Below are positions 3,687 to 52,492 of a stretch of DNA of 64,000 bases, in pieces (within the stretch, counting starts at the first letter, position 1; each line of letters starts with the position of its first letter). The stretch is taken from the NCBI GenBank assembly GCA_900617105.1, contig UYFQ01000260.1:248001-312000 (forward strand), given 5' to 3'. Source of the stretch: Hydrurus foetidus. Taxonomy: Eukaryota. The position numbers and the translations under genes are program-made. The notes under the pieces are model-generated. The model made no database searches. It saw nothing but the letters and a program-made list of their open reading frames with translations, and had not been told where the DNA came from.

Positions 3687-5430
3687 GCCTCTCCAACCTG
3701 GGTCCGTCCGGCTTTCAGCCCGGCCTGGCGCTGGTTGGTCGAGCGCGTCTGGCGCCTGGAACACGCCTTCGAGCGCTCGCGCGCCGCCGCCAAGCCCGAA
3801 GACGACACCCGCATCCGCATCTTCTTCGTGATGGCCTTTTTCGGCCTGTGCTTCGTGGGCCTGGCCCTGGGGGCAAGCGGCTCGGCCCTGTTCTCCAACG
3901 CCGGCAAGGGCGCGGGCTATCTGGCCTCGACCGAGGGCGCACGGGGCGATCTGGTGGACCGTGATGGCCGCCTGCTGGCCGTCGACCTGACCCACTACGC
4001 CCTGTACGTCGATCCCAAGGAAGTCTGGGACAAGGCCGAAGCGCGTCGCGCGCTCGGCAGGGCCCTGCCCGAAGTGCCCGCCAAGCGCCTGGACAAGGTC
4101 GTGTTCGGCGACCGTCGCACCTTTCTGCTGGGCGGCCTGACGCCTGAGCAGAAGGACGCCATCTTCAACCTGGGTCTGCCGGGCATCTCGTTCGAGGAGC
4201 AGGGCCGCCGCATCTATCCGCTGGGCGCCACCGCCGCTCATCTGGTCGGTTTCGTCGACAGCGGCGGCAAGGGGCTGGCCGGGGCCGAGCGGGCTCTGGA
4301 CAAGCCGATCCGGCAGGCGGCCGGCGGCGGTGGTCCCACCGTTCTGTCGATCGACATCCGCGTGCAGGCGGCCCTGGAAGACGAGTTGCGCAAGGCTGCG
4401 CAGGAGTTCCAGCCGCGCGGCGCGGTGGGCCTGGTGACCAATGTCCACACCGGCGAAATCCTGGGCATGGCCAGCTATCCCGACTTCGATCCCAACAAGG
4501 CCGGGACCGCCACCGACGACCAGAAGCTGAACCGGGCGGCCGGCGCGGTGTATGAAATGGGCTCGACCTTCAAGGCCTTTACCGTGGCCATCGGCCTGGA
4601 CACCGGCGTCGCCACCCCGACCTCGACCTTCGACGCCCGCGAGCCTTACAAGCTGGGCTATCGCACGATCCACGACTACCACGCCGCCAAGGCGATCCTG
4701 ACCCTGGTCGAGGTGTTCAAGCACTCGTCCAACATCGGCACCGCCAAGCTGGCGGTCGGCGTCGGGGCCCAGCGGCTGAGCCAGTACTTCAGCAATCTGG
4801 GCCTGACCAAGCCGGCCAAGGTCGAGCTGCTGGAATCGGCCCGCCCCCTGACCCCGCGCAAGTGGGACGAGGACGCTGTGGCCTCCACCTCGTTCGGCCA
4901 CGGCATGAACATCACGCCCCTGGCCCTGGCCGAGGCCATGGGCCCGCTGCTGAACGGCGGCGCCCGTCCGCCCCTGACCATCCGCAAACTGGCCCAGGGC
5001 GTGCGGCCCGAAGGTCCGCGCGTGCTGACCGAGGAAACCTCGCAACAGATGCTGCGGATCATGCGGGCCAATGTCATTCCCGGCGAAGGCGGCAGCGGCG
5101 GCAAGGCCGACGTGGCCGGCCTGTCGGTGGGCGGCAAGACCGGCACCGGCGAGAAGTACGACCCCGCCCTCAAGGCCTATAACCACCAGCGTCAGGTCTC
5201 GTCCTTCGCGGCGGTGTTCCCGACGGACGGCCCGCTGGAGGCCGACCGCTATTTCGTGCTGATCCTGCTGGACGAACCCAAGGGCAACGCCCGCACCTTT
5301 GGCTTCTCGACCGGCGGCTGGGTGGCCGCGCCGGCCGCCGGCAAGGTGATCGAGCGCATCGCCCCGTTCCTGGGCGTGCATCGCAAGCCGCAGATCATGC
5401 CGTCTCCATCGCAAAACACCAGGGACCGGC
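3683..5430 (+). CDS. ftsI: Penicillin-binding protein 3 (division transpeptidase); ends affected by indels
   Basis: RGDLVDRDG, GSTFK, SSN and KTG motifs. Confidence 0.95.
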
Positions 5431-5432
5431 CT

Positions 5433-6861
5433 GTGACGCTGTCCGACCTTCTCGCCGCGACCTGCCCGATAGTCCGGTGATCACCGGGGTGACGGCCGAC
5501 AGCCGCAAGGTCGGGCCCTCGCCCTCCCGCCGGGCACGAAAGTCGATGGCCAGCTTCGCCCCCAGGGCCATCGCCGCAGGCGCGGCCGCCGTGCTGGGTC
5601 CGGTCGGCATGGAGACCTTCTCGGTCCCGACCGTGAAGGTCGAGGATCCGCGCCGCGCCTATGCCCTGGCCTCGGCCGCCTTCTGGGGCGCCCAGCCGGC
5701 GATCTGCATCGCCATCACCGGCACCAACGGCAAGACCTCGGTGGCCGGCTTCTGTCGCCAGATCTTCGCGCGACTCGGCCACAAGGCCGCCAGCATGGGA
5801 ACCCTGGGCGTCGTGGTCAGTGGGCCCGGCGCTGCGGACCAGCAACTGACCCCTCCCGGCCTCACCACCCCTGACGCGGCCGATGTGGCCGAGATGATGG
5901 CGCGTCTGGCGCGCGAGGGTGTCACCCACCTGGCGGTCGAGGCCTCGTCGCACGGCGTGGATCAACGCCGCCTGGACGGGGTGAGCCTGAAGGCCGCCGG
6001 CTTTACCAACTTCACCCAGGATCACCTCGACTATCACGGCTCGATGGAGAGCTATCGCGACGCCAAGCTGCGCCTGTTCGACGCCCTGCTGCCCATTGGC
6101 GCGACGGCGGTGCTGAACAGCGACAGCGACGCGTTTCCGGTCTTCGCCGCCGCAGCGTGATGTCGGGCCAGGCGTGTTCTCGGTGGGCGACGGGGCCGGG
6201 ACTCAAGCTGGTCTCGCGCGCCCTGCCCGAGGGCCAGCCCTGACGGTCGAGGCGGCCGGCCAGACTCACACCGTCGAGCTGCCGCTGGCCGGGCCTTCCA
6301 GGCCAGCAACGTGCTGGTCGCGGCCGGGCTGTGCATCGCCACCGGCGAGGACACGGCCGCCGTGCTCAAGGCGCTGGAAAGCCTGGAAGGCGCGGCCGGT
6401 CGTCTGCAGCGCGTGGGTCGCGGCGCCCGGGGCGGCGAGGCCTATGTCGACTACGCCCACACCCCGGACGGACTGGAGACCGTCCTGGAAGCCCTGCGCC
6501 CGCACACGGCCGGCAAGCTGATCGTGGTGTTCGGCGCGGGCGGTGATCGCGATCGCGGTAAAAGGCCCTGATGGGCGAGATCGCCGCGCGGCTGGCCGAC
6601 ATCGCCATCGTCACCGACGACAATCCGCGCTCGGAAGAGCCCGCCTCGATCCGCGCCGCCATCCTGGCCGCTGCGCCGGGCGCGACCGAGATCGGCGACC
6701 GCCGCGCCGCCATCCGCGCCGCCGCCGCCCAGATGGTCGAGGGCGACGTGCTGGTCGTGGCCGGCAAGGGTCACGAGCAGGGGCAGCTGGTGGCCGGCGT
6801 CAATCACCCGTTCGACGATGTGACCGAAACCCTCGCCGCGCTGGAGATGGCTGATGTCTGA
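5433..6861 (+). CDS. murE: UDP-MurNAc-tripeptide synthetase, several frameshifts
   Basis: [41 protein letters not shown] across ORF pieces. Confidence 0.93.
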
Positions 6862-8236
6862 GCCCCTCTGGACCGCCCAAGAGATTGCCGCCGCCACCGG
6901 CGGCAAGGTCACGCAGGACTTCTCCGCCACTGGCGTCTCGATCGACAGCCGCAGCATCGAGCCTGGCGACCTGTTCGTGGCCCTGACCGGCGCGCGGGAC
7001 GGCCATGAGTTCGTCGTTCAGACCAATGACAAGGGCGCGGCCGGCGCGCTCGTCTCCAAGCCCGTGCCCGTGCCGGCGGTGCTGGTCGAGGACACCTTCC
7101 GGGGTCTAGAGCGTCTGGGCGGCTCGCCTGCGCGCCCCTCAGGCCCGTCGCGGGGCGATCACCGGCTCGGTCGGCAAGACCAGCGTCACCCGCGCCGTCG
7201 AGGCCGGCCTGCGTCTGGCCGGCAAGGCCCATGCCTCGGTCAAGTCGTACAACAACCATATCGGCGTTCCCCTGACCCTGGCCCGCATGCCGCGCGACAC
7301 CGAGCGCGCCGTGTTCGAAGTGGGCATGAACCACGCCGACGAGATCGTGCCGCTGTCGCGGATGATCCGTCCGCACGCCGTGGCCATCACCACCGTCGGC
7401 CCCGTGCACCTGGAAAACTTCGCCGACGGCGAGGCGGGCGTCGCCCGCGCCAAGGCCGAGATCTTCGCCGGCCTGGAGCCCGAGGGCGTGGCGGTGCTGA
7501 ACGCCGACAATCCCTGGTTTGAGTTGCTGAGCGAAGAGGCCAGGAAGGCCGGCGCCACCATCTGGAGCTTCGGCTCGGGCGAGGGCGTCACCGCCCGGCT
7601 GCTCGCATTCGAGGTCATTGAGGACGGCGCCCTGGTCACCGTCGATCTGCGCGGCGAGCTGATCAAGTTCCCGCTGCTGCAGACCGGCGTCCACTGGGGC
7701 CCCAACAGCCTGTGCGTGCTGCTGATGCTGGAAGCCCTGGGCGTGGATCGCGACACCGGCCTGCAGGCCCTGGCGACCTTCGAGCCGATCGAGGGGCGCG
7801 GCGCCGAGACGATCGTCAAGATCGACGGCGGCGCCTTCACCTTGGTCGACGAGAGCTACAACGCCAATCCGGTCTCGATGCAGGCGGCCCTGACGACGCT
7901 GGGCGCGCGCCGGTTGCAGGCCGGCGGATCACCGTTTTGACCGACATGCTCGAACTGGGCGAGGGCAGCGCCCGGTTTCACGCCGAGCTTGCAGGCCCGC
8001 TGGAGGCCGCCAACGTCGATCTTGTCTTTCTGGCAGGCGTCCACATGAAATCACTGTGGGAGGCGCTTCCGCCGACTCGGCGGGGCGGCTACGCGGAGAT
8101 TACCGAAAAGTTAACGACGAAGCTGACGGCCGCGATCCGGCCGGGCGACGTGGTGATGGTTAAGGGGTCGAATGGCTCCAGGGCTGGCGTTCTCGCCAAG
8201 GCTCTGGCGGCGCTTGATCTTGGGGAACGGGGCTGA
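6854..8236 (+). CDS. murF: UDP-MurNAc-pentapeptide synthetase, frameshifted
   Basis: [35 protein letters not shown]. Confidence 0.93.
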
Positions 8237-9345
8237 TGCTGTATTTTCTGTATGAATGGCTGGCGCGCGGCCAAGAGCACGTGCCGCTGCTGAACCTGCT
8301 GAAGTACCTGACCTTCAGGACCGGCATGGCCATGCTGACGGCCTATATCGTCGCCGTCGCCATGGGCTCGCGCTTCATCCGCTGGATGAAGGCCCGCCAG
8401 GGCAAGGGTCAGCCGATCCGCACCGACGGCATCGCCCGCCACATCACCGAAAGGCCGGCACGCCCACCATGGGCGGCTTCATGATCCTGGCCGGCCTGTT
8501 CGTCGGCGCCATCCTGTGGGCCGACCTGCGCAACATCCATATCTGGGTGGTGCTGCTGATCACCGGCAGCTACGGCGTGCTGGGCTTCATGGACGACTAC
8601 GCCAAGGTCACCAAGCAGACCACGGCCGGCCTCTCCAGCGGCCAGAAGCTGGTCGCCCAGTTCATCGTGGCCATCGCCGCCACCGTGCTGCTGATCCTGT
8701 TTGCGCCCAAGCAGGACATGGCGCCGGGCATGGAGACCAGCCTGGTCTTCCCGTTCTTCAAGACGCTGGTGATCAACCTCGGCTGGTTCTATGTGGCCTT
8801 TGCCGCCGTCACCATCGCCGGCTTCTCCAACGCCGTGAACCTGACCGACGGGCTGGACGGCCTGGCCATCGTGCCGGTGATGATCGCCGCGGCGACCTTC
8901 GGCCTGATCACCTATCTGGTCGGCAACTACAAGTTCGCCGACTATCTGAACCTGCACTTCGCGCCCGGCGTCGGCGAGCTGGCGGTGCTGTGCGGCGCGA
9001 TCATCGGCGGAGGCATGGGCTTCCTCTGGTACAACGCCCCGCCAGCCAAGATCTTCATGGGCGACACCGGCTCGCTGGCGCTCGGCGGCGCCTGGGCGCC
9101 ATCGCCGTGTGCTCCAAGCACGAACTGGTGCTGGGCATTGTCGGGGACTGTTCGTGGCCGAGGCGCTCAGTGTCATCATCCAGGTCGGCTACTTCAAGAA
9201 GACCGGCAAGCGGGTCTTCCTGATGGCCCCGATCCACCACCATTTCGAAAAGCTGGGCTGGGCTGAATCCACCGTCGTGATCCGCTTCTGGATCGTGGCG
9301 ATGATGCTGTCCTTCGTCGGCCTCGCCACTCTGAAGCTGAGATAG
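8236..9345 (+). CDS. mraY: Phospho-MurNAc-pentapeptide transferase, frameshifted
   Basis: [39 protein letters not shown]. Confidence 0.95.
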
Positions 9346-9356
9346 GGAGCCAGATC

Positions 9357-10808
9357 ATGATCCCCGTCCGTGGTTTCGAGGGCAAGACCGTCGCGGTGTT
9401 CGGCCTGGGCCGCACCGGCCTGACGGCCGCGCGCGCCTCGTGGCCGGCGGGGCCAATGTGGCGGTGTGGGACGAAACCCCGCCAGCCAGGACGCCGCCAT
9501 GGCCGAGGGCTTCAAGGTCGTCGACCTGCGCTCGGCCGACTGGAGCCTGTTCTCGGCCCTGATGCTGTCGCCCGGCGTGCCGCTGACCCATCCCCAGCCG
9601 CACTGGACGGTGAAGATGGCCCGCGACGCCGGGGTCGAGATCCTGGGCGACATCGAGCTCTTCGCCCGCACGGTCAACGCCGCCCCGCCGCACAAGCGCC
9701 CCAAGATCATCGCCATCACCGGCACCAACGGCAAGTCGACGACCACGGCCCTGATCGGCCACCTGTGCGCCTCGGCCGGCCGCGACACCCGCGTCGGCGG
9801 CAATATCGGCGCCGGCGTGCTGGGCCTGGAAGACATGCACGGCGGCGCCGTCTATGTGCTGGAACTCTCCTCGTACCAGCTGGACCTGACCAGCAGCCTC
9901 AAGGCCGACGCCACGGTGCTGCTCAACATCTCGCCCGACCACCTGGACCGTCACGGCGGCATGGACGGCTATATCGCCGCCAAGCGCCGGATCTTCCTCA
10001 ACCAGGGCAAGGGCGACACCGCCATCATCGGCGTCGACGATCCGTGGTGCCAGCAGATCTGCACCGAGATCACCGCCGCCAACCGCCGCACCATCTGGCC
10101 GATCAGCGCCGGCAAGACCATGGGCCAGGGGTCTATGCCCTGCAGGGCGTGCTGTACGACGCCACCGGCGACCGGGTCACCGAGATGGCCGACCTGCTGC
10201 GCGCCCGCAGCCTGCCGGGCCGCCACAACTGGCAGAACGCCTGCGCCGCCTACGCCGCCGCCACCGCCATCGGCATCCCGGCCCACGACGTGGTCGAGGG
10301 CCTGATGACCTTCCCGGGCCTGGCCCACCGGATGGAGACCGTCGGCAAGATCGGCCGCGTGCGCTTCGTCAACGACAGCAAGGCCACCAACGCCGACGCC
10401 GCCCGCCAGGCGATGAGCAGCTATCCCAAGTTCTACTGGATCGCCGGCGGCGTGCCCAAGGCCGGCGGCATCAGCGACCTGCACGACCTCTTCCCGCGCG
10501 TGGCCAAGGCCTATCTGATCGGCGAGGCCGCCGAAGACTTCGCCGCCACGCTGGAGGGCAAGGCCCCGGTGCGGCTGTGCGGCTCGATCGAGGTGGCCAC
10601 GGCGGCGGCGTTCTCCGACGCCATGGACAGCGGCGAGGACGCCATCGTGCTGCTGTCACCGGCCTGCGCGTCGTTCGACCAGTTCGCGGACTTCGAAGCG
10701 CGGGGCGAGGCGTTCAGGGCGGCGGTTGAAGGGTTGGGGAAGATCGGGGCTAAGGCGGCGCGGGGTAGGGGGCGGGGCTATGGTGCGAATGACAATCGAT
10801 TTGTTTGA
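9357..10808 (+). CDS. murD: UDP-MurNAc-L-Ala:D-Glu ligase, frameshifted
   Basis: GLGRTG, ITGTNGKSTT, ELSSYQL, NDSKATN, LLSPACASFDQF. Confidence 0.95.
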   Translation: MIPVRGFEGKTVAVFGLGRTGLTAARASWPAGPMWRCGTKPRQPGRRHGRGLQGRRPALGRLEPVLGPDAVARRAADPSPAALDGEDGPRRRGRDPGRHRALRPHGQRRPAAQAPQDHRHHRHQRQVDDHGPDRPPVRLGRPRHPRRRQYRRRRAGPGRHARRRRLCAGTLLVPAGPDQQPQGRRHGAAQHLARPPGPSRRHGRLYRRQAPDLPQPGQGRHRHHRRRRSVVPADLHRDHRRQPPHHLADQRRQDHGPGVYALQGVLYDATGDRVTEMADLLRARSLPGRHNWQNACAAYAAATAIGIPAHDVVEGLMTFPGLAHRMETVGKIGRVRFVNDSKATNADAARQAMSSYPKFYWIAGGVPKAGGISDLHDLFPRVAKAYLIGEAAEDFAATLEGKAPVRLCGSIEVATAAAFSDAMDSGEDAIVLLSPACASFDQFADFEARGEAFRAAVEGLGKIGAKAARGRGRGYGANDNRFV

Positions 10809-11765
10809 GCACCGTACTAATCAAACAACGTACCTGGGACTTGCCGTGTGGGGCCATTCCTGTCGAAGATCGTACTTCCCCTGTTTATCGTGCCGGCGAC
10901 CGGTTACTTCCCGCAGGTATACCGCGTTTTGGGTCGGGCCTAGCGTAAATTTTATTATCACCGCAACGCATACTGTCGCCGACGCGATGAAGCATGATGG
11001 CCGATTCGCCGAGCCTTATCTTCCGGAGCTTCCGGCGAAGGCTAGCTAACCAACGTGTGCTTATACGTTCTTCATCCGAGCGAGCCTCAAGGCAGCTTTA
11101 CCCTTATTCGCTTGAGAATCTTAACGGCGGTTGGCCGTTAGATGTCATCTTCGGCTATCCGGTTTTGAGCACGGTCGAGTTACAGGATCTTGCCTTTAAG
11201 TTTCGATCCTCCTCGGATTGGGAAACCGTCTGGAGTGTCGGCTATCATGCCATCACACGGTTCCGGCACTTGAGTTCGAAATAATACCTGCGACTGGCTT
11301 GGCAATTTCAAGCATAGATTTTGGTTGTTGAAGAGCCAAGGTTAGAGGATTTTTGTCAGAACGATTTGCTCGCGGCTTTGTTGGAAGGGCCTTGCTTTAG
11401 CACGTGAATTCCATCGATCATGGCTGAGTGGAGGTCCAGTCATTTCTGCGATGGCAGGATCGTTGAATCAATTCCGCCGGTGCAGAACTCTATTTTGATC
11501 GCCCTGCCGCACTGGCGTCGATATCGCAGTATCCATTGTTGGTTTGCAATTTACAGTATGGGGCTCAGATTGGTCCTGCCAGGATAAACGATCTCGACCC
11601 TTGTTTGACTTGGTTGGTCGAGGCCAAATTCGTAGTGATGGAAGCGAGGTCAACGTCGCCTTCCGCCGAGATGAAGCAACCAATCAAGTCGGCGTAAGCC
11701 CGCGATCGAAGGTCGATCATGGATTTGTCCATAATGACTTTTCTGGATTTCTAGGGGCTCTGTGA
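10789..11765 (+). CDS. Lower-GC fragmented gene, probable trypsin-like serine protease
   Basis: TAFWVG..FIITATH (His at 10969), ELQDLAF, and HG(x)SGGPV at 11419-11441 with one base missing; several indels. Confidence 0.55.
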
Positions 11766-11862
11766 GCCAGCCCGTTGGCGGACCCTTCACGCGGTTGGTG
11801 CGGAAACCACCGATCCAGACAGGTGGCTTTCCGCCTCACCCGCCAACGCGGGTGCAGCCCGA

Positions 11863-12016
11863 CCTAAAACCCTTGGTGGAATTGGAGCTCTGGCTGACGG
11901 CCTCGTCAAGGACGACGCTCTCGCGTCGCCGCGAGGCGGCGGCCCCGCAGGGGCCGGCTGCCGGCGAGGGCGAGGAGGCCGACAGCCAGAGCAAGCTCGC
12001 CTCCAAGGGTTTTAGG
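11863..12016. repeat. 154-bp fold-back palindromic element (MITE/REP-like)
   Basis: CCTAAAACCCTTGG pairs with CCAAGGGTTTTAGG; inner GCTCTGGCTGACGGCCTC pairs with GAGGCCGACAGCCAGAGC. Confidence 0.8.
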
Positions 12017-12046
12017 GCGCGGCCTGGCCGCTGGGCGGCCGTTTTA

Positions 12047-12110
12047 GCAACCCTCTCTCTTTGAGAGAGGGAGGGGCCCGCCGCCGCAGGCGGTGGGAGG
12101 GTGAGAGGTT
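12047..12110 (+). repeat. Left arm of the inverted repeat flanking the DUF559 gene
   Basis: Reverse complement of 12516-12577 except one internal loop; internal hairpin CCCTCTCTC-TTT-GAGAGAGGG. Confidence 0.92.
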
Positions 12111-12447
12111 ACACCCTGTCCGAACGAAGCACCGCCAGGATGTCTTCCGACACGCCACCGGGATCGGCCAGCACCCGCGCGTTGGGAAATCGCAGAACGA
12201 TGTAACCGAACAATTCCAGCACCTGGTCCGTCGCTCGTCATGGTCCTCGGCCGTCATGGGCCGCGCCGTCCAGTTCCACGATCACCTTGGCTGCCTCGCA
12301 GACGAAGTCCGCGAAGTATCGATCAATCGCGACCTGCCGCAGAAACCTGAACCCGCCCAGCCGGCGATTGCGGACGAGGGTCCAAAGCGTCTTCTCGGCC
12401 AGGGTCTGGTTGCGGCGAAGACGACGGGCGTTGGCGGTCTTGTCCAT
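12109..12447 (-). CDS. DUF559 / Vsr-like PD-(D/E)xK endonuclease-domain protein, frameshifted
   Basis: ARRLRRNQTLAEKTLW, FRFLRQVAIDRYFADFVC, VELDGAAH, DERRT, GYIVLRFPN; TAA at 12109-12111. Confidence 0.88.
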
Positions 12448-12515
12448 GGCGAAACCATGGTCCGACCGCATGGGACTTTCAACGACAGGAATCGGGATTT
12501 TCCGGCCAGCGGTGA

Positions 12516-12577
12516 AACCTCTCACCCTCCCACCGCTTCGCGGCGGGCCCCTCCCTCTCTCAAAGAGAGAGGGTTGC
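12516..12577 (-). repeat. Right arm of the inverted repeat flanking the DUF559 gene
   Basis: Near-perfect inverted copy of 12047-12110. Confidence 0.92.
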
Positions 12578-12586
12578 AGGCAGGGC

Positions 12587-13195
12587 CTAAACCCGCCGCA
12601 CTCCCCACGATCGCCACCGGCGGGTTGATCATCTGGCCCTTCATGCTGGGGTTCTGCGGCACGCCGTCGGTCTTCGAGGCCAGGATCTTGCGCACCACGT
12701 CCATGCCCTTGACCACCGTGCCGAAGGCCGCGAAGCCCTGGTTGTCGCCGGGGGCGCCGGGCTTGGCGTCGAGATAGGCCATCGGGCTGGCGCAGATGAA
12801 GAAGTCGGCCGTGGCGCTGCCCGGCTCGTTGCGGGCCATCGAGATCGTGCCGGCCTTGTGCCGGATCCCCGTCGCGTGCTCTCGTGGGCGATGGGCGCGA
12901 AGCGGCGGGTGCGGATCGAGGGGCCGGCCTGGATCGAGCCGTTGGCCGGCGCGCCCCGGGCCCGCGAGGCGCGATAGAAGCTGCCGCCGTCGAACTTCTT
13001 CTTGTCGACATAGCGCAGGAAGTTGGCCGAGGTAATCGGCGCCTTCTTGTCTTCCAGTTCCACCACGATCACGCCCAGCGCGGTCTCGATCGCCACCCGG
13101 GGCTTGGCGCTCTGGGCTTGCGCCGACAGCGGGCTGACCAGCAACAGTCCGGCCCCGACCAGCAGGCTTCGGCGGGCGATCCAGGCGTCTTTCAT
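12587..13195 (-). CDS. Secreted cyclophilin-type peptidyl-prolyl isomerase, frameshifted
   Basis: RR signal peptide, KAPITSANFLRYV, GTISMAR, ADFFI, FAAFGTVVKGMDVV. Confidence 0.88.
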
Positions 13196-13346
13196 CGTCG
13201 TCCTCGGGCGGCAAACAGCGGTCTCACCCTTAGCGCGCCGCCGCCGGCCCATCCACTGGCGAAAAGTCCGCCGCCTTTCGCCGCATATCCCCCGCCGACA
13301 AGCGCTGCAGCAATGTTCGATTAACCTTGCGCGCCGACCTCCGGAC

Positions 13347-14518
13347 ATGTCGACCCAGACCACCCACGCCTTCGCCAGAACCGACCGCACGGCGATCGGC
13401 ATCTGGTGGTGGACGACCGATCGCTGGCTCCTTGGAGCCACGGCGATTTTGGTCACCCTGGGCGTGCTGCTGTCGTTCGCCTCCAGCCCGGCGGCGGCCC
13501 AGCGGATCGGCATCGACGACCAGTTCCATTTCGCCCTGCGGATGTGCGTCTTCGCCAGCCTCTCGGCGGTGATCCTGCTGACCACCTCGATGCTGTCGCC
13601 CAAGGGCGTGCGGCGCACGGCCTTCTTCATCTATGTGGCGGCCATCGCGGTGATGATCGCCCTGCCGTTCATCGGCCACAACGCCAAGGGCGCCACCCGC
13701 TGGGTGCAGTTCGCCGGCTTCACCCTGCAGCCGTCGGAGTTCATGAAGCCGGCCCTGATCGTGCTGGTCTCGTGGATGTTCGCCGAGGGTCAGAAGGGCG
13801 AGGGGGTGCCGGGCGTCTCGATCGCCTTCCTGCTGTATTTCATCGCCGTGGGCCTGCTGCTGATCCAGCCCGATGTGGGCCAGACCGTGCTGATCACCGT
13901 GGCCTTCGGGGCGGCGTTCTGGATGGCCGGGGTGCCGATCAGCTGGATCATGGGCCTGGGCGCCGTGGCGGTGGGCGGACTGTTCTCGACCTATTTCCTG
14001 TTCGACCACGTGCATGCCCGGGTGCAGAAGTTCCTCAGCCCCGACCAGGCCGACACCCACCAGATCACCCGCGCCGCCGAGGCCATCCACGCCGGCGGCC
14101 TGTTCGGGCGCGGCCCGGGCGGGGGGTCATGAAGCGCCATGTGCCCGACCTGCACACCGACTTCATCTATTCGGTCGCCGCCGAGGAATATGGCCTGGTG
14201 TTCTCGCTGTCGCTGATCGGCCTGTTCGCCTTCGTGGTGGTGCGCGGCATGATGAAGGCCATGAAGCTGAACGACACCTTCGAGCAGGTCGCCGCCGCCG
14301 GTTTGTTCGTGCTGGTGGGCCAGCAGGCGATGATCAATATCGCGGTGAACTTGAACATGATCCCGACCAAGGGCATGACGCTTCCGTTCATCAGCTACGG
14401 GGGATCGTCGATGCTGGCTATGGGACTGACTTTGGGCCTGGCCCTGGCCCTGCTGCGCAAGCGCCCCGGCGCCTATGGCCCGTCTGGCGAGTTTACCCAG
14501 GGCGGCGCGTTCAACTGA
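13347..14518 (+). CDS. ftsW: SEDS glycosyltransferase FtsW, frameshift near 14125
   Basis: GATRW, QPSEFMK, QPDVG, PDLHTDFI, LPFISYGGSS. Confidence 0.95.
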
Positions 14519-14519
14519 C

Positions 14520-15624
14520 ATGAGCAAGCTTGTTGTCGTCGCCGCCGGGGGTACCGGCGGTCACATGTTCCCCGCCCAGGCCCTGGCCGAAACCCTCGGG
14601 GCCCGCGGCTGGCGCGTGGTGCTGGCCACCGATGATCGCGGCGCGATCTATGCCGACAAGTTCCCGGCCGAAGAGCGTCTGGCCCTGTCGGCCGCCACCG
14701 CCAAGGCCGGCGACCCGATCGGCATGCTCAAGGCCGGCTTCGTCGTCGCCCAGGGCGTGCTGCAGGCGAGCCGCCTTCAAGCGCCTGGACCCGGCCGTGG
14801 TGGTGGGTTTCGGCGGCTATCCCGCGCTTCCCGCCCTGCTCGGCGCCCTGTCCCAGGGCCGGCCCACGGTGATCCACGAGCAGAACGCGGTGCTGGGCCG
14901 GGTCAACCGCTTCCTGGCCCCCCGGGTCACCGAAGTGGCCTGCGCCTTCCCGATCCTGGAAAAGGCCGCGCCCGCCGTGAAGGCCCGCGCCCACGTCGTC
15001 GGCAACCCCGTGCGTCCGCCGGTGCGCGCCCTGTTCGACGTGCCCTATCTGCCGCCGGAAGTGCAGCTGCGCATCCTGGTCACCGGCGGCAGCCAGGGCG
15101 CCCGCCTGCTGTCGGAACTGATCCCCGAAGCCATCGCCAAGCTGCCCGAAGAGATGCGCGGCCGCCTGAAGGTCTTCCAGCAGGCCCGCGCCGAGAGCCT
15201 GGAACACGCCCGCAAGGTCTATCGCAACGCCATGGTCGACTGCGAGGTCGCGCCGTTCTTCCGCGACATGGCCGGCTATCTGCGCCAGTCGCACCTGGTG
15301 ATCGGCCGCTCGGGCGCCTCGACCTGCACCGAATTGGCTGTCGCCGGCCGGCCCTCGATCCTTGTCCCCCTGAAGATCGCCGCCGATGACCACCAGCGCT
15401 TCAACGCCCGCCTGCTGGAAGAAGCCGGCGGCGCCGCCGTGTGCTTCGAGGACGAGCTGACCGTCGACGCCATGGCCGGCGCCCTTAACGCCCTGCTCAA
15501 GAACCCCGAGCGCCTGGCGCGGATGTCGGACGGCGCGCGGTCAGTGGCCAAGCCCAACGCGGCCGAGGAACTGGCGGATCTGGTGGAGCGGACGGCGGGC
15601 CAGGTCCGAATCCCCTCGCGCTAG
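14520..15624 (+). CDS. murG: Lipid I N-acetylglucosaminyl transferase, frameshift near 14770
   Basis: GGTGGHMFP, GFGGY, HEQN, GNPVR, GGSQGA, RSGAST. Confidence 0.95.
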
Positions 15625-15887
15625 AGGGCGGACCCGATCCTGGCCGGGCGAGCGGGCTCCGGGACGCTTCCGGCCAGATCCTTTGACCTTTCATGCGACC
15701 CCGGCCCTTGCTGGTGTCAGGTTTTCCAGCATGGCGCGAGCGGTTGGGCGGAGATCGCGCGAACCGTCACGGCATGCCCGTCACCGCAGCTCCAAAATCA
15801 CGCCGGAATGCCCAGGCCCTGAAATCCCGCGTGCTTCCGATACGGTTCTGGGTCTAGTCTTCAAAAAAAATGCGCGGGGGAACAATC

Positions 15888-17783
15888 ATGAAGAAGGCCA
15901 TAGGCGCTCTTGTCGTCGTCGGAGCCTGTGTCGTCGGCTTGGCGGCCTGCGACAAGGTCGGTTCAAAAACGGGGGCGGGCGCCAAGACGGCGGTCGTCGA
16001 CACCGAATATCCCGAACGGGTCTATTGGGGCGACACCCACCTGCACACCAGCAATTCGGTCGACGCGTTCGGCTTTGGCGTGCGTCTGGGCTCGGAGGAG
16101 GCGCTGCGGTTCGCGCGCGGCGAAGAGGTGACCTCGACCGGCGGCCTGAAGGCCAAGCTGGCCCGGCCGCTGGACTTTCTGGTCATCGCCGACCATTCCG
16201 ATGGCCTGGGCTTCACCCGCAGGATCTATGAAACGCCGGCCTTCCTGCTGCGCAACCCGCTGTTTCGCCGCTGGCATGACCTGATGCATGAGGGCCCCGA
16301 GGGCTCGATGAAGGCGACGGGCGAGCTGATCGACGCCGCCGCCAGCGGCTCGCTGCCGCCGTCCATCACCGATCCGAAGCGCTCGGCCAAGGCGACCCGC
16401 TCGATCTGGAACGACCACGTATCGATCGTCGAGCGCTACAACGACCCGGGCAAGTTCAGCGCCTTCATGGGTTTCGAATACACCCTGATGCCCAAGGGCG
16501 ACAATCTGCACCGCGTGGTGATGTTCCGCGATGGCAAGGCCGAGGCCTCCAAGGTGGTGCCCTATTCGTCCCTGGTCGGCACCTCGGCCGAGATGCTGTG
16601 GGACTATATGGACGGCTACGAGAAGACCACCGGCGGCAAGGCCCTGGCCATTCCGCACAATTCCAATGTCTCCAACGGCCTGATGTTCGAGCTGACCGGT
16701 CCGGACGGCGGCCCGATGTCGGCTGACTATGCCCGCCGCCGCGCGTCGCGTGAGCCGCTGGTCGAGGCGACCCAGATCAAGGGCGACAGCGAGTCTCACC
16801 CCTTCCTGTCGCCGAACGACGAGTTCGCCAGCTTCGGCGACGCGGGCTGGGATCTGGGCAACCTGCCCATGTCGTCCAAGAAGACCCCCGACATGTTCGC
16901 CGGCGAATATGTCCGCGAGGCCCTCAAGCGCGGCCTGGCGATCCAGGACAAGACCGGGGTCAATCCCTACAAGATGGGCATGATCGGCTCGACCGACTCC
17001 CACACCGCCCTGGCGACGGCCGACGAGGACAACTTCTTCGGCAAGCACTCCGGGGTCGAGCCGCGCGCCGGCCGGGCGATGGAGCCGCAGAACCTGGGCA
17101 CGCGCGAGGGGCGCAGCGGCTATCACTATCTGGCCGGCGGCTATGCCGCCGTCTGGGCCAAGGCCAATACCCGCGCGGCGATCTTCGATGCGATGATGCG
17201 GCGCGAGGTCTATGCCTCGACCGGTCCGCGCATGCAGGTGCGGGTGTTCGGCGGCTGGGACTTCACCGCCAACGACCTGAAGACCAACTGGGTCAAGGCC
17301 GGCTATGCCCGCGGCGTGCCGATGGGCGGCGATCTCAAGGCCGGGGCCGGCAAGGCGCCGGTGTTCATCGTCTCGGCCCTCAAGGACCCGATCGGGGCCA
17401 ATCTGGATCGCGTCCAGATGATCAAGGGCTGGGTCGACAAGGCCGGCGTCACCCACGAGCAGATCTATGACGTGGTCTGGAGCGACCCGGCCCGCCGGGC
17501 GATGACGGGCGGCAAGGTCCCTCCGGTCGGCGACACTGTCGATCTGGCCACAGCCACCTATGCCAACACCATCGGCGCGCCGGAGCTGACCACGGTGTGG
17601 ACCGACCCCGATTTCGACCCGACCCTGAAGGCCTTCTACTATGTGCGGGTGATGGAGATCCCGACCCCGCGCTGGGTGGCCTATGACGCCGTGCGCTACA
17701 AGGTGAAGATGGGCCCGGAGGTGCGGATGAAGGACCAGGAGCGGGCCTATACCTCGCCGATCTGGTACACGCCCAAGGCCTGA
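15888..17783 (+). CDS. DUF3604 / PHP-like metallohydrolase lipoprotein
   Basis: Lipobox LAAC, YWGDTHLHTSNSVDA, LDFLVIADH, IPHNSN, GSTDSH, QERAYTSPIWY. Confidence 0.85.
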   Translation: MKKAIGALVVVGACVVGLAACDKVGSKTGAGAKTAVVDTEYPERVYWGDTHLHTSNSVDAFGFGVRLGSEEALRFARGEEVTSTGGLKAKLARPLDFLVIADHSDGLGFTRRIYETPAFLLRNPLFRRWHDLMHEGPEGSMKATGELIDAAASGSLPPSITDPKRSAKATRSIWNDHVSIVERYNDPGKFSAFMGFEYTLMPKGDNLHRVVMFRDGKAEASKVVPYSSLVGTSAEMLWDYMDGYEKTTGGKALAIPHNSNVSNGLMFELTGPDGGPMSADYARRRASREPLVEATQIKGDSESHPFLSPNDEFASFGDAGWDLGNLPMSSKKTPDMFAGEYVREALKRGLAIQDKTGVNPYKMGMIGSTDSHTALATADEDNFFGKHSGVEPRAGRAMEPQNLGTREGRSGYHYLAGGYAAVWAKANTRAAIFDAMMRREVYASTGPRMQVRVFGGWDFTANDLKTNWVKAGYARGVPMGGDLKAGAGKAPVFIVSALKDPIGANLDRVQMIKGWVDKAGVTHEQIYDVVWSDPARRAMTGGKVPPVGDTVDLATATYANTIGAPELTTVWTDPDFDPTLKAFYYVRVMEIPTPRWVAYDAVRYKVKMGPEVRMKDQERAYTSPIWYTPKA

Positions 17784-17786
17784 CGG

Positions 17787-18632
17787 ATGACGCTACGCGA
17801 ACGCCTGGTCCAGGGTCTGCGCGAGCCCCTGGTCCAGTTCCTGCTGGCCGGGGCCGTGATCTTCATCGTCTTCGCCCTGGCCGGCGGCGGTCCCGATCCG
17901 GGCGAGCGCCGCATCGCGGTCGACGAGGCGCGGGTCCAGCGCATCGTCACCCTGTGGATGCAGACCTGGCATCGCCCGCCGACCCCGGCCGAGCTGGACG
18001 GGCTGATCGGCGAGTATGTGCAGGAGGAGGTCTATTATCGCGAGGCCCTCCGCCTGGGTCTCGATCGCGATGACCCGGTGATCCGGCGACGGCTGCGCTC
18101 GAAGATGGAGTTCCTGGCCGCCGACCAGCTGGAAAGCGTCTCCCCGGGCGATGACGTCCTGAAGGCCTGGATGCAGGCCCATCCGGCGCTCTACGTCCCG
18201 GATGCCAAGCTCAGCTTCCAGCAGATCTATGTCGGCTCGGCCACCGACCGCGACGCCGCCGAGGCCCGGGCCGCGACGATCCTCAGCCGCCTGGCGGCCG
18301 GGGCGTCGCCGGCCCAGCTCAGGCAACCCCTGTCGCTGCCGACCGCCCTGTCCGGGGCCTCCCGTTCCGAGGTCGACAGACAGTTTGGCGAGGCCTTCTC
18401 CGAGGGGCTGTTGCGCGCGCCGACCGGCCGCTGGACGGGGCCGGTCGCGTCCGGCTTTGGCCTGCACGTGGTCAAGGTCACCGCCGTAAAGCTGGGGCCG
18501 CCGCCCGCGCTGGATCAGGTGCGACAGGCGGTCGAGAACGACTGGCGCGCCGCCACCCGCGCCGAGCGGGAGGCCAGGGCCTATCAGGACCTGCTCAAGG
18601 GCTATGACGTCGTCATTGCGCGGCCCGAATGA
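17787..18632 (+). CDS. Parvulin/PpiC-type (Rotamase_2) membrane-anchored protein
   Basis: REPLVQFLLAG, EEVYYREALRLGLDRDD, GPVASGFGLH. Confidence 0.82.
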   Translation: MTLRERLVQGLREPLVQFLLAGAVIFIVFALAGGGPDPGERRIAVDEARVQRIVTLWMQTWHRPPTPAELDGLIGEYVQEEVYYREALRLGLDRDDPVIRRRLRSKMEFLAADQLESVSPGDDVLKAWMQAHPALYVPDAKLSFQQIYVGSATDRDAAEARAATILSRLAAGASPAQLRQPLSLPTALSGASRSEVDRQFGEAFSEGLLRAPTGRWTGPVASGFGLHVVKVTAVKLGPPPALDQVRQAVENDWRAATRAEREARAYQDLLKGYDVVIARPE

Positions 18633-19615
18633 CCTTTCTGCGTCTGGTTGCCCTGGTTCTGGCCTGGCTGACGCTCGCCGGCGTCGCCCGGGCTGACGAT
18701 CTGCGGCCCGGCTATCTGGAGCTGACCCAGACCTCGCCTTCGGCCTGGAAAATGGTCTGGAAGGCGCCGATCCGCGGCGGTCTGGCGACCCACGCCGCGC
18801 CCAGCCTGCCGGCGCAATGCCGGTCGCAGCCGCCCTCGCGCGACCTGATCGCCGGGGCGCTGGTCGAGGTGGCAAGCTTCGACTGTCCCCGGGGGCTGGA
18901 AGGCCAGACCGTCGGCCTGACCGGGCTGGACGCGACCTTCACCGACGCCCTGGTGCGGATTGCGCCGCTGGGGCGTCCTGTTCAGGTCGGCCGCCTCACG
19001 GCCGACCGGCCGCTGATGGAGGTGCGCGCGGCGCCCGACCGCTTGCAGGTGGCCCGGACCTATCTGGTGCTCGGCGTCGAACACATCCTGGCCGGCTATG
19101 ATCACCTGCTGTTCGTCCTGAGCCTGGTGCTGCTGCTGCGCGGCGGCATGCGGATCGCCAAGACCGTGACAGCCTTCACGCTCGCCCATTCCCTGACCCT
19201 GGTCGCCACCTCCCTGAACCTGATCAGCCTGCCGCGCCAGCCGGTGGAGATCTGTATCGCCCTATCGATCGTGTTCCTGGCCGTCGAGATCGTGAAGTCA
19301 CGGCCCGAGGGGCCGCCGCGCCTGTCGGAACGGGCCCCCTGGCTGGTGGCCTTCGCCTTTGGGCTGCTGCACGGGTTCGGGTTCGCCGGGGCCCTGGCCG
19401 AGATCGGCATGCCCGAGCGCGAGGTCCCCACCGCCCTGCTGACCTTCAATATCGGCGTCGAGATCGGCCAGCTGATCATCGTCGGGGCCGGACTGCTGGT
19501 GCTGGAGCTGATCCGCCGCTTCGCCCCGCAACACCGCCGCCTGTTTCAGCGCTGCGCCGCCTACGGCATCGGCGTCACGGCCGCCTACTGGTGCATTGTC
19601 CGCATTCTGGGCTGA
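18629..19615 (+). CDS. HupE/UreJ-family membrane protein
   Basis: LGVEHILAGYDHLLF, FTLAHSLTL, FGLLHGFGFA. Confidence 0.88.
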   Translation: MTFLRLVALVLAWLTLAGVARADDLRPGYLELTQTSPSAWKMVWKAPIRGGLATHAAPSLPAQCRSQPPSRDLIAGALVEVASFDCPRGLEGQTVGLTGLDATFTDALVRIAPLGRPVQVGRLTADRPLMEVRAAPDRLQVARTYLVLGVEHILAGYDHLLFVLSLVLLLRGGMRIAKTVTAFTLAHSLTLVATSLNLISLPRQPVEICIALSIVFLAVEIVKSRPEGPPRLSERAPWLVAFAFGLLHGFGFAGALAEIGMPEREVPTALLTFNIGVEIGQLIIVGAGLLVLELIRRFAPQHRRLFQRCAAYGIGVTAAYWCIVRILG

Positions 19616-19620
19616 CACCG

Positions 19621-20247
19621 CTAGGGGGCGACGGGGATCATCACCTCGTTGCGGCGCATGAACCACGGGGTCCAGGGCGGATTGTACTGGGCCAGCGACG
19701 CGGGCCCGGTCGCCCGCAGCTGGCGGGCAGACAGGCGTTTCTGCAGGTCAGCGGTCTTGGCCTCGACCGTGTCCGCTCCGGCCAGGCCCGAGAAGCGCAG
19801 CACCGCCAGGCGGGAGGGCGGAACGAGGCGAAGCTTCACCTGGGGGTCGTTCGGCTCAGGCAGGGCTTCGAGGCTGTAGCGGCTGGGCATGGTGAACCTC
19901 ACGACCCATTGTCCAGCGCTTTGGGTCTGGATGACCGGCGCCGTCATGGCGATGGTCTGGCCGGCCGGCGCCTGGGCGACCGGCGCGGTCATGGCGATGC
20001 TCTGGCGCGTCCTGTTGCCGCCGAAGATATAGCCGGCCAGCAATCGAAAGCCGCGACTGGCCGCTTCTTTCTGATCGCCGCTGACGGTCACTTCGGCGAC
20101 CACCAGGGCCGGATAGTCGCGAACGTCAAAATCGCCCTCGTGGACGACGACCTTAAAGGCAGGTTCTTCAACGGCCATGGCCACGGTTCCCAGAAAGACT
20201 GCCGCAAGCACTGCGGTCATGGCCATGCGTTTCAGGATCTTGCTCAT
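19621..20247 (-). CDS. SOUL-family heme-binding protein
   Basis: GFRLLAGYIFGGN, IAMTAPV twice, YNPPWTPWFMRRNEV. Confidence 0.92.
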   Translation of the reverse strand: MSKILKRMAMTAVLAAVFLGTVAMAVEEPAFKVVVHEGDFDVRDYPALVVAEVTVSGDQKEAASRGFRLLAGYIFGGNRTRQSIAMTAPVAQAPAGQTIAMTAPVIQTQSAGQWVVRFTMPSRYSLEALPEPNDPQVKLRLVPPSRLAVLRFSGLAGADTVEAKTADLQKRLSARQLRATGPASLAQYNPPWTPWFMRRNEVMIPVAP

Positions 20248-20491
20248 GCCTTTTCCCCCGCCGGGCGCCCGGCGACCACACTAACACCGGACTGAACGGC
20301 CCGGGCCTGACTTCGTTGCGCGGGCAAGGTCGGCCTCGCCGGCTGATTGGCGTCAGCCGGGCGGCGCCTCTGAGAGGGGCGAGAACAGCACGGCCAACTG
20401 TATCGGTTTGGCGACCGTGGCGCTCGCGCACTCAAGAGTTGCCACTTCGTTCTCATCCCGCTAGGCTTGTGTTACGGGATGGGAGCAGGGC

Positions 20492-52374: not shown

Positions 52375-52492
52375 AAGTCCTCCCCCTGAAGGGGGAGGCG
52401 GTCCGGAGGCCGGTGGGGGAAGACCGCATTGATCCAGCAGTCACTTCCCCCTCCGATCGGCTTCGCGATCGCCTCCCCCTGGGGGGGGACTT
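52375..52492. repeat. Inverted dimer of double-hairpin REP-like units, no ORF inside
   Basis: AAGTCCTCCCCCTGAAGGGGGAGGCG..GGGGGAAG faces CTTCCCCC..CGCCTCCCCCTGGGGGGGGACTT. Confidence 0.7.

Follow-up and report, generated by a model that had tools for sequence, protein, structure and literature searches.

The locus described here raises the question of whether a small nuclease gene enclosed by inverted structured repeats spreads those repeats or is merely carried along with them. The unit is 531 bp long and lies in the dcw cluster of the stretch of DNA analysed, which is 64,000 nucleotides in length and is referred to below as the window (Table 1). The genus is taken to be Caulobacter from the gene content and from named Caulobacter records with related cassettes, and all genome-level counts come from the genomes of relatives. 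As stated in the initial annotation, the two arms are exact reverse complements except for the loop of the inner hairpin (blastn within the window, E 3e-21), the TAA of the gene at 12111-12109 shares bases with the inner end of the left arm, and the packaged gene encodes a DUF559 protein (PF04480, E 3e-37; 127 bits against a cut-off of 20.6, profile positions 2-108 of 109). The stop codon likewise abuts the arm in 40 of 44 members of the window's clade, and the first ~25 nt of the leader are retained in gene-less derivatives too. The folding of the whole unit has a z of -9.7 against 100 shuffles. No other blastn match to the arm longer than 14 nt was found within the window; the gene-less inverted pair located elsewhere in it is of the same type as the arms of a DUF559 locus (L039) in G001, the nearest genome.

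Table 1 Positions of the 531-bp unit, its parts and a gene-less repeat pair in the window
Feature	Position	Strand	Basis or remark
Left arm, gene-end side, BoxC/TM-type	12047..12110 (64 nt)	+	sequence, TMECO consensus, covariation
Left arm, pyrimidine tract	12051-12059	+	sequence; followed by loop TTT
Left arm, purine tract	12063-12071	+	sequence
Left arm, loop 2, hairpin	12077-12097	+	sequence
Left arm, predicted third strand	12099-12107	+	sequence
DUF559 nuclease gene (predicted Vsr/EDxHD fold)	12109..12447	-	112 codons, in-frame TGA at codon 70
Leader between ATG and right arm	12448..12515	-	~68 nt
Right arm, leader side, inverted triplex motif	12516..12577 (62 nt)	-	
Right arm, hairpin	12553-12573	-	
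Right arm, third-strand complement	12519-12527	-	
Gene-less inverted pair, second arm subtype	52377..52492	.	CCTCCCCC stem, GGTGGGGG third strand; elsewhere in window

The window's gene is 86% identical to the copy L004 of G001, and compared with the intact relative L002 it lacks 1 nt after 12224 and 2 nt after 12247, which accounts for the in-frame TGA. This stop is probably, if not provably, an assembly error, since all 22 gaps relative to G001 in 4076-10778 are losses in the window and essential dcw reading frames are frameshifted. A further 4 losses and 1 gain fall in 12587-15600, and 15790-20343 has zero gaps. The region 4076-15600 shows a dense, one-sided loss of bases relative to G001, with mraY, murD, ftsW and murG frameshifted, and is probably poorly polished. 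By read mapping, contigs of relatives, none of them from the window's strain, span the cassette, and many skip its interior. The placement of the unit between murD and ftsW holds loosely, as accessory ORFs, a palindrome and a cyclophilin gene also intervene. The cyclophilin gene (PF00160) lies between the unit and the ftsW side, with its stop ~9 bp from the right arm. The palindromic repeat of ~190 bp (11840-12032) adjoins the cassette; G001, G198 and G160 carry it at the orthologous site, and in G001 it is dispersed as well. From murD to the cyclophilin gene, 10780-11830 forms a hypervariable slot with different accessory DNA at each of five orthologous loci; the ORF at 10994-11281 within it has no Pfam match.

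Judged from their sequence, the arms are BoxC/PIT/TM intrastrand-triplex motifs with a predicted triplex fold and not plain REP hairpins. Such repeats have been known since the 1990s and are tied to genome instability, and we know of no partner or mode of spread for them. Holder et al. 2015 name no partner protein and found no link to mobile elements or to the function of flanking genes (PMC4666352). Each arm follows the plan of a pyrimidine tract, a loop, a complementary purine tract, a loop bearing a hairpin, and a reverse-Hoogsteen third strand that mirrors the purine tract (G for G, A or T for A); in the left arm these elements are found at 12051-12107. The hairpin and second stem earlier described in each arm are both present, the second stem being the one inside loop 2 of the triplex motif, whereas the reading of the arms as REPs did not hold, no GTAG- or CGTC-tagged hairpin occurring in the arm sequence or its outer flanks. 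Rfam returned nothing beyond sub-threshold miRNA-like hairpin matches. While the exact TMECO consensus has a second loop of 3 nt (PMC4666352), loop 2 is here 27 nt long and holds a 21-nt hairpin, the stem is CCCTCTCTC, and its position 8 is a T; measured against that consensus, the window arm is a TM variant and not TMECO itself. A perfect third strand accompanies 251 of 291 distinct hairpins (214 on the 3′ side) versus 21 ± 4 with swapped stems, the either-side count being one that neighbouring arms can inflate. At one anchored position the third strand covaries with the stem, with G in 34/34 C:G stems and A or T in 47/48 T:A stems, counted as sequences and not as independent events. TMECO oligonucleotides form triplexes in vitro, as seen by CD/NMR, while no triplex was seen for double-stranded TMECO and no protection was observed in vivo (PMC4666352). 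Since purine-motif triplexes do not form in RNA (PMC4666352), selection would appear to act at the DNA level.

The predicted structure of the intact L002 protein (pLDDT 88.8) points to a hydrolytic Vsr/EDxHD-type fold and not to an HUH fold. The nearest structure found by Foldseek is NGO0050 (3hrl, E 3e-8); the catalytic domain of I-Bth0305I also matches (E 8e-5, TMq 0.68), and Vsr does so weakly (E 0.04). All Pfam and Foldseek matches are Vsr/EDxHD-like, with neither an HUH/Y1 transposase fold nor a GIY-YIG (cd10448) domain among them. Conserved E, D, H and D catalytic residues sit on the Vsr-like fold as in EDxHD enzymes: across 118 rows E18, W22, R37, Q38, H64 and R87 are invariant, and H64, D47 and D71 are found in 118, 117 and 114 rows, respectively, E58, D60 and G61 having been imposed by the row filter and the GTDB rows chosen by an FRRQ..Y pattern. 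W22 is present in 89/89 flanked versus 23/52 unflanked homologues; both distance and the search patterns confound this difference. The gene is under purifying selection, with a median dN/dS of 0.14 (105 pairs, 15 genes).

The initial annotation had proposed a RAYT-analogous system, and of that proposal the pairing of gene and repeat stands, while the repeats are not REPs and the predicted fold is not HUH. A transposase of the RAYT kind, able to cut the repeats and to rejoin them, would suit the position of the gene between inverted structured repeats, the distinct left and right ends, and the lack of a target-site duplication of constant length and position, which is seen in at most 3 of 69 cases at any fixed offset (a loose duplication test gave 14/52 versus 5.1 ± 2.0 expected). 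It would also suit the chromosomal distribution, as 0 of 72,556 plasmid records cover the cassette, the arms alone occurring in 12 Azospirillum records. However, neither an HUH motif nor a conserved pattern of catalytic tyrosines was seen in the protein, its predicted fold is PD-(D/E)xK-like, and the arms are not GTAG/CGTC REPs. A fold of this type is hydrolytic, so that strand transfer would lack a covalent intermediate, and we regard a rejoining transposase as very unlikely.

The pairing of gene and repeat extends well beyond the window. Arms were scored by comparing 250 nt upstream of a gene with the reverse complement of its downstream flank, and a locus was called flanked at a score of at least 30, which was reached at 79 of 84 loci, including 13 chosen by DNA likeness to the window. 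Among Pfam-picked loci of the Caulobacter genus (70 from the best 150 of 361 matches and 2 from G001, one being dropped for a short flank), inverted arms flank 66/71, leaving 5 without arms, versus 0/30 control glyoxalase genes, a control weakened by flanks that are often coding. In GTDB (best 80 of at least 592 matches, 5 dropped for short flanks) they occur at 61/75 DUF559 loci and are missing at 14, versus 1/75 pseudo-genes; the flanked loci span Pseudomonadota, Chloroflexota, Planctomycetota and others. Flanking repeats are thus far commoner at DUF559 genes than at the controls, contrary to the outcome by which the initial annotation would have been refuted. On viral contigs arms are present at 29/73 DUF559 loci, with 29/43 among closer matches and 0/30 among distant ones.

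The same association is seen at the level of genomes. Among 251 Alphaproteobacteria, at least 10 matches to the hairpin pattern were counted in 42/61 genomes with DUF559 versus 9/190 without (9/189 with the unpublished genome G258 left out), the median being 20 versus 0 matches per genome; for genomes of at least 3 Mb the counts are 33/43 versus 5/59. Ten of the 11 gene-positive, pattern-negative genomes were examined, and variant arms lie at the gene in 8 and none in 2. Among genomes of the genus, three or more unlinked hairpins of the CCCTCTCTC type are found in 32/35 genomes with the cognate clade versus 8/46 without it, these 8 and the 9 above being the genomes that have repeats without a detected gene. 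The significance of such co-occurrence is overstated because the genomes are related to one another and matches to the pattern may overlap. The proposed co-phylogeny of protein and repeat was also found: arm type tracks clade, and unlinked repeats of a given subtype tend to be found in the genomes that have the clade matching it. On the protein tree, arm type changes 15 times compared with 60 ± 3 with shuffled labels, which serves as description only, since linkage alone predicts gene-arm co-phylogeny. To our knowledge no substrate of DUF559/YcjD is known; the DUF559 nuclease is likely the missing partner of the BoxC/PIT/TM family, because the pairing recurs across many bacteria, including at E. 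coli ycjD and Caulobacter vsrA.

VsrA and YcjD are DUF559 proteins like that of the window, and a TM arm forms the end of either gene. The two published primers for cloning vsrA match L098, whose 177-aa product has E73, D102, D115, H119 and D124 as published for VsrA (PMC12907096), and these five proposed catalytic residues map on E18, D47, D60, H64 and D71. VsrA (CCNA_02930) belongs to a separate clade with CCTTCTCCC arms: the last codons of L098 traverse a CCTTCTCCC-type arm that is followed by its inverted partner, and upstream there is no clear arm (score 20), leaving a clear pair only downstream. In Caulobacter crescentus, scmA mutants depend on VsrA for their SOS response, VsrA is needed for DNA damage in vivo, and it has been proposed as a VSP repair enzyme, a candidate for T:G mismatch repair, its link to a cytosine methyltransferase being genetic (PMC12907096). 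CCNA_02876, the second Vsr-like gene in that work, may be the DUF559 copy of a prophage-like cluster. The ScmA motif YGCCGGCR occurs in 6/16 short G001 elements, three of which share one sequence, versus 46/710 background windows, and can be taken as a lead only. The arm at the end of the ycjD gene (L458:2408-2761) is degenerate in MG1655, where it lies 168 bp from TMECO 9, and nearly intact in HR12-1; the ycjD region is found in 3377/5426 E. coli genomes, and the fabI-sapF slot that the gene occupies holds eefRABCD in other lineages (PMC12817139). In the literature covered, neither protein is connected with the repeat.

The 531-bp unit represents a widespread cassette, which is multi-copy and varies in its sites. 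DUF559 is present in 77/81 genomes of the genus, with 0-12 genes per genome, and the window's clade has 45 loci in 29 different neighbourhoods, that of the window being unique. Three other loci of G001 carry cassette copies (97.4-99.3% identical), and its orthologous site lacks one; the remaining two DUF559 genes of this genome lie between inverted arms that belong to different subtypes. At G001's three sites the cassette is found in 0/5, 0/5 and 1/5 relatives. Five of 30 cyclophilin loci are true ftsW-adjacent orthologues, and the comparison of filled and empty murD-ftsW sites suggested earlier finds the gene absent from all five, but each has a different insert, and one of them (L102) retains the right arm together with the leader (94% identity). 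Among the orthologous loci of the relatives compared there was no clean filled/empty pair. Two non-orthologous cyclophilin loci (L105, L113) too have arms just after the stop. At one intergenic site, three relatives carry TM pairs of different subtypes (L442, L443, L444), which suggests a spot that is targeted repeatedly.

One site, which holds the full cassette in G001 and G177 but a short arm pair in G096, brings up the possibility of homing, in which a DUF559 dimer would cut gene-less arm pairs in double-stranded DNA and the cassette would be copied in by recombination between the arms. The nearest characterised fold, I-Bth0305I, is indeed a dimer that cuts a pseudopalindrome (PMC3239194), and the lack of a fixed target duplication is also in keeping with this. 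However, the short pair in G096 belongs to another subtype, and the 113-aa single-domain protein has no separate DNA-binding domain and is encoded in intergenic DNA, with no intron, intein or split-gene host. Moreover, selection on the triplex points to single-stranded recognition, and homing cannot generate new repeat sites, which together make it very unlikely.

The gene-less elements keep the polarity of the cassette. In those of the window's subtype, one inner flank is of the leader type and the other of the gene-end type in 22/22 cases, several with weak scores, and two different ends are kept in 24/26 of all gene-less elements, one element being unparsed; this leader/gene-end polarity echoes the A+B pairing of the E. 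coli repeats (PMC4666352). Their interiors are 79-480 nt long and mostly unique, with just 1 still resembling the cassette interior, and in its sequences the set is unlike a recent MITE burst. Seven of these TM elements (L483-L485, L488, L492, L494, L498) contain nested CGTC-type/SRM-like palindromes. At four G001 loci (L016, L022, L024, L027), identical insertion-sequence-like ends, which we take to be IS481-like, abut or interrupt the arm hairpin, suggesting an insertion sequence that targets TM repeats. In small prophage-like clusters (L389:5100-8065, L039, L370-L409), DUF559 cassettes lie oppositely oriented between portal and terminase genes, and these clusters may be gene transfer agents. 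An inovirus identity of the small viral contigs was discarded, as L389, the one checked, has terminase, portal and capsid genes; the remaining ones resemble it by ORF size and end sequence only.

Part of this record would also fit a Vsr-like nuclease with a repair or accessory role that is a passive passenger between recombinogenic repeats, the repeats themselves spreading through replication slippage, recombination or a different repeat system. The arms bracket unrelated DNA too (L009, 480 bp), and the three young copies of G001 share a ~25-bp flank that belongs to a second repeat family (GTCCGC with CGACCC/CCACCC; flanks of L002, L003 and L004, and L440, L441, L450 and L457), which bounds different cargo in relatives. 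The spread of these copies therefore need not involve DUF559, and a part of the recent copies has the look of cargo carried by a different repeat family. That family lies within 60 nt of 11/51 cassettes versus 12/1065 background windows, but it is absent from the other 40 and from the window's copy. The VSP repair role proposed for VsrA, the instability of TM loci in E. coli (PMC4666352) and copies that look long-resident, such as the ycjD region, are likewise compatible with a passive nuclease. However, such a nuclease leaves unexplained the scarcity of repeats in genomes that lack DUF559, the matching of subtypes and the fixed overlap of stop codon and arm, and the ORF list shows no identifiable methyltransferase gene next to the copy in the window. 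We consider a passive role unlikely, though a more serious contender than homing or a rejoining transposase.

It appears on balance probable that DUF559 nicks its own folded single-stranded arm and that host repair spreads the unit, with binding, the cut site and causation being what we infer. The encoded protein would recognise the arm folded as a single-stranded intrastrand triplex and nick at it, after which repair by the host would place copies of the cassette, and of its derivatives without the gene, at new sites. Only tentatively can this be widened to a model in which DUF559 proteins are dedicated triplex readers and cutters, and the gene with its arms a self-spreading source of BoxC/TM repeats across bacteria. 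If such triplex cutting occurs, the toxicity of VsrA in scmA mutants would result from the cutting of TM elements, some of which carry the ScmA motif in their spacer, and not from mismatch repair. The DUF559-repeat pairing opens a direct experiment in two models, E. coli K-12 with ycjD and C. crescentus with vsrA, where deletion strains are available; if true, it would provide a third enzyme class among nuclease-plus-repeat systems, evidence that a DNA triplex is under selection in cells, and a possible source of a 113-aa structure-specific ssDNA nuclease. In the literature covered, which takes in neither subscription journals nor supplements on bioRxiv, we found no paper that connects DUF559 with these repeats.

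Compared with known systems, the cassette differs from classical DDE insertion sequences and MITEs in having no constant target-site duplication. It shares with RAYT (TnpA-REP) and its REP/REPIN sequences the enzyme gene between inverted repeats and the gene-less dispersed pairs, but it has neither the HUH/Y1 chemistry nor the GTAG/CGTC-tagged hairpins. RAYTs are mostly single-copy, in contrast to the range of DUF559 gene numbers per genome given above. With the EDxHD homing endonucleases (PMC3239194; PMC2677866) it shares the catalytic fold, as predicted, and a motif of the E-x-D-x-x-x-H-D type, whereas it has no N-terminal DNA-binding domain and no intron or intein host, and is not phage-borne, with 3 weak matches in 50,697 phage records. 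In the Ssn/SRM system, too, the gene of a small single-domain nuclease has its own structured repeat at its flanks; this repeat is dispersed genome-wide, gene and repeat co-occur across phyla (PMC11893778), and the same arrangement of a gene with a cognate dispersed repeat and genome-level co-occurrence is found here. DUF559 is absent from the main text of Chenal et al. 2025, where SsnA cuts ssDNA beside its flanking hairpin (PMC11893778). Ssn proteins pair a GIY-YIG domain with a simple hairpin and their activity has been shown in vitro (PMC11893778), while the DUF559 cassette pairs a Vsr/EDxHD fold with a predicted triplex and its nuclease activity is predicted. In its proposed way of working, the cassette would resemble Ssn/SRM, the closer precedent, and more loosely RAYT/REP, and it is a member of neither.
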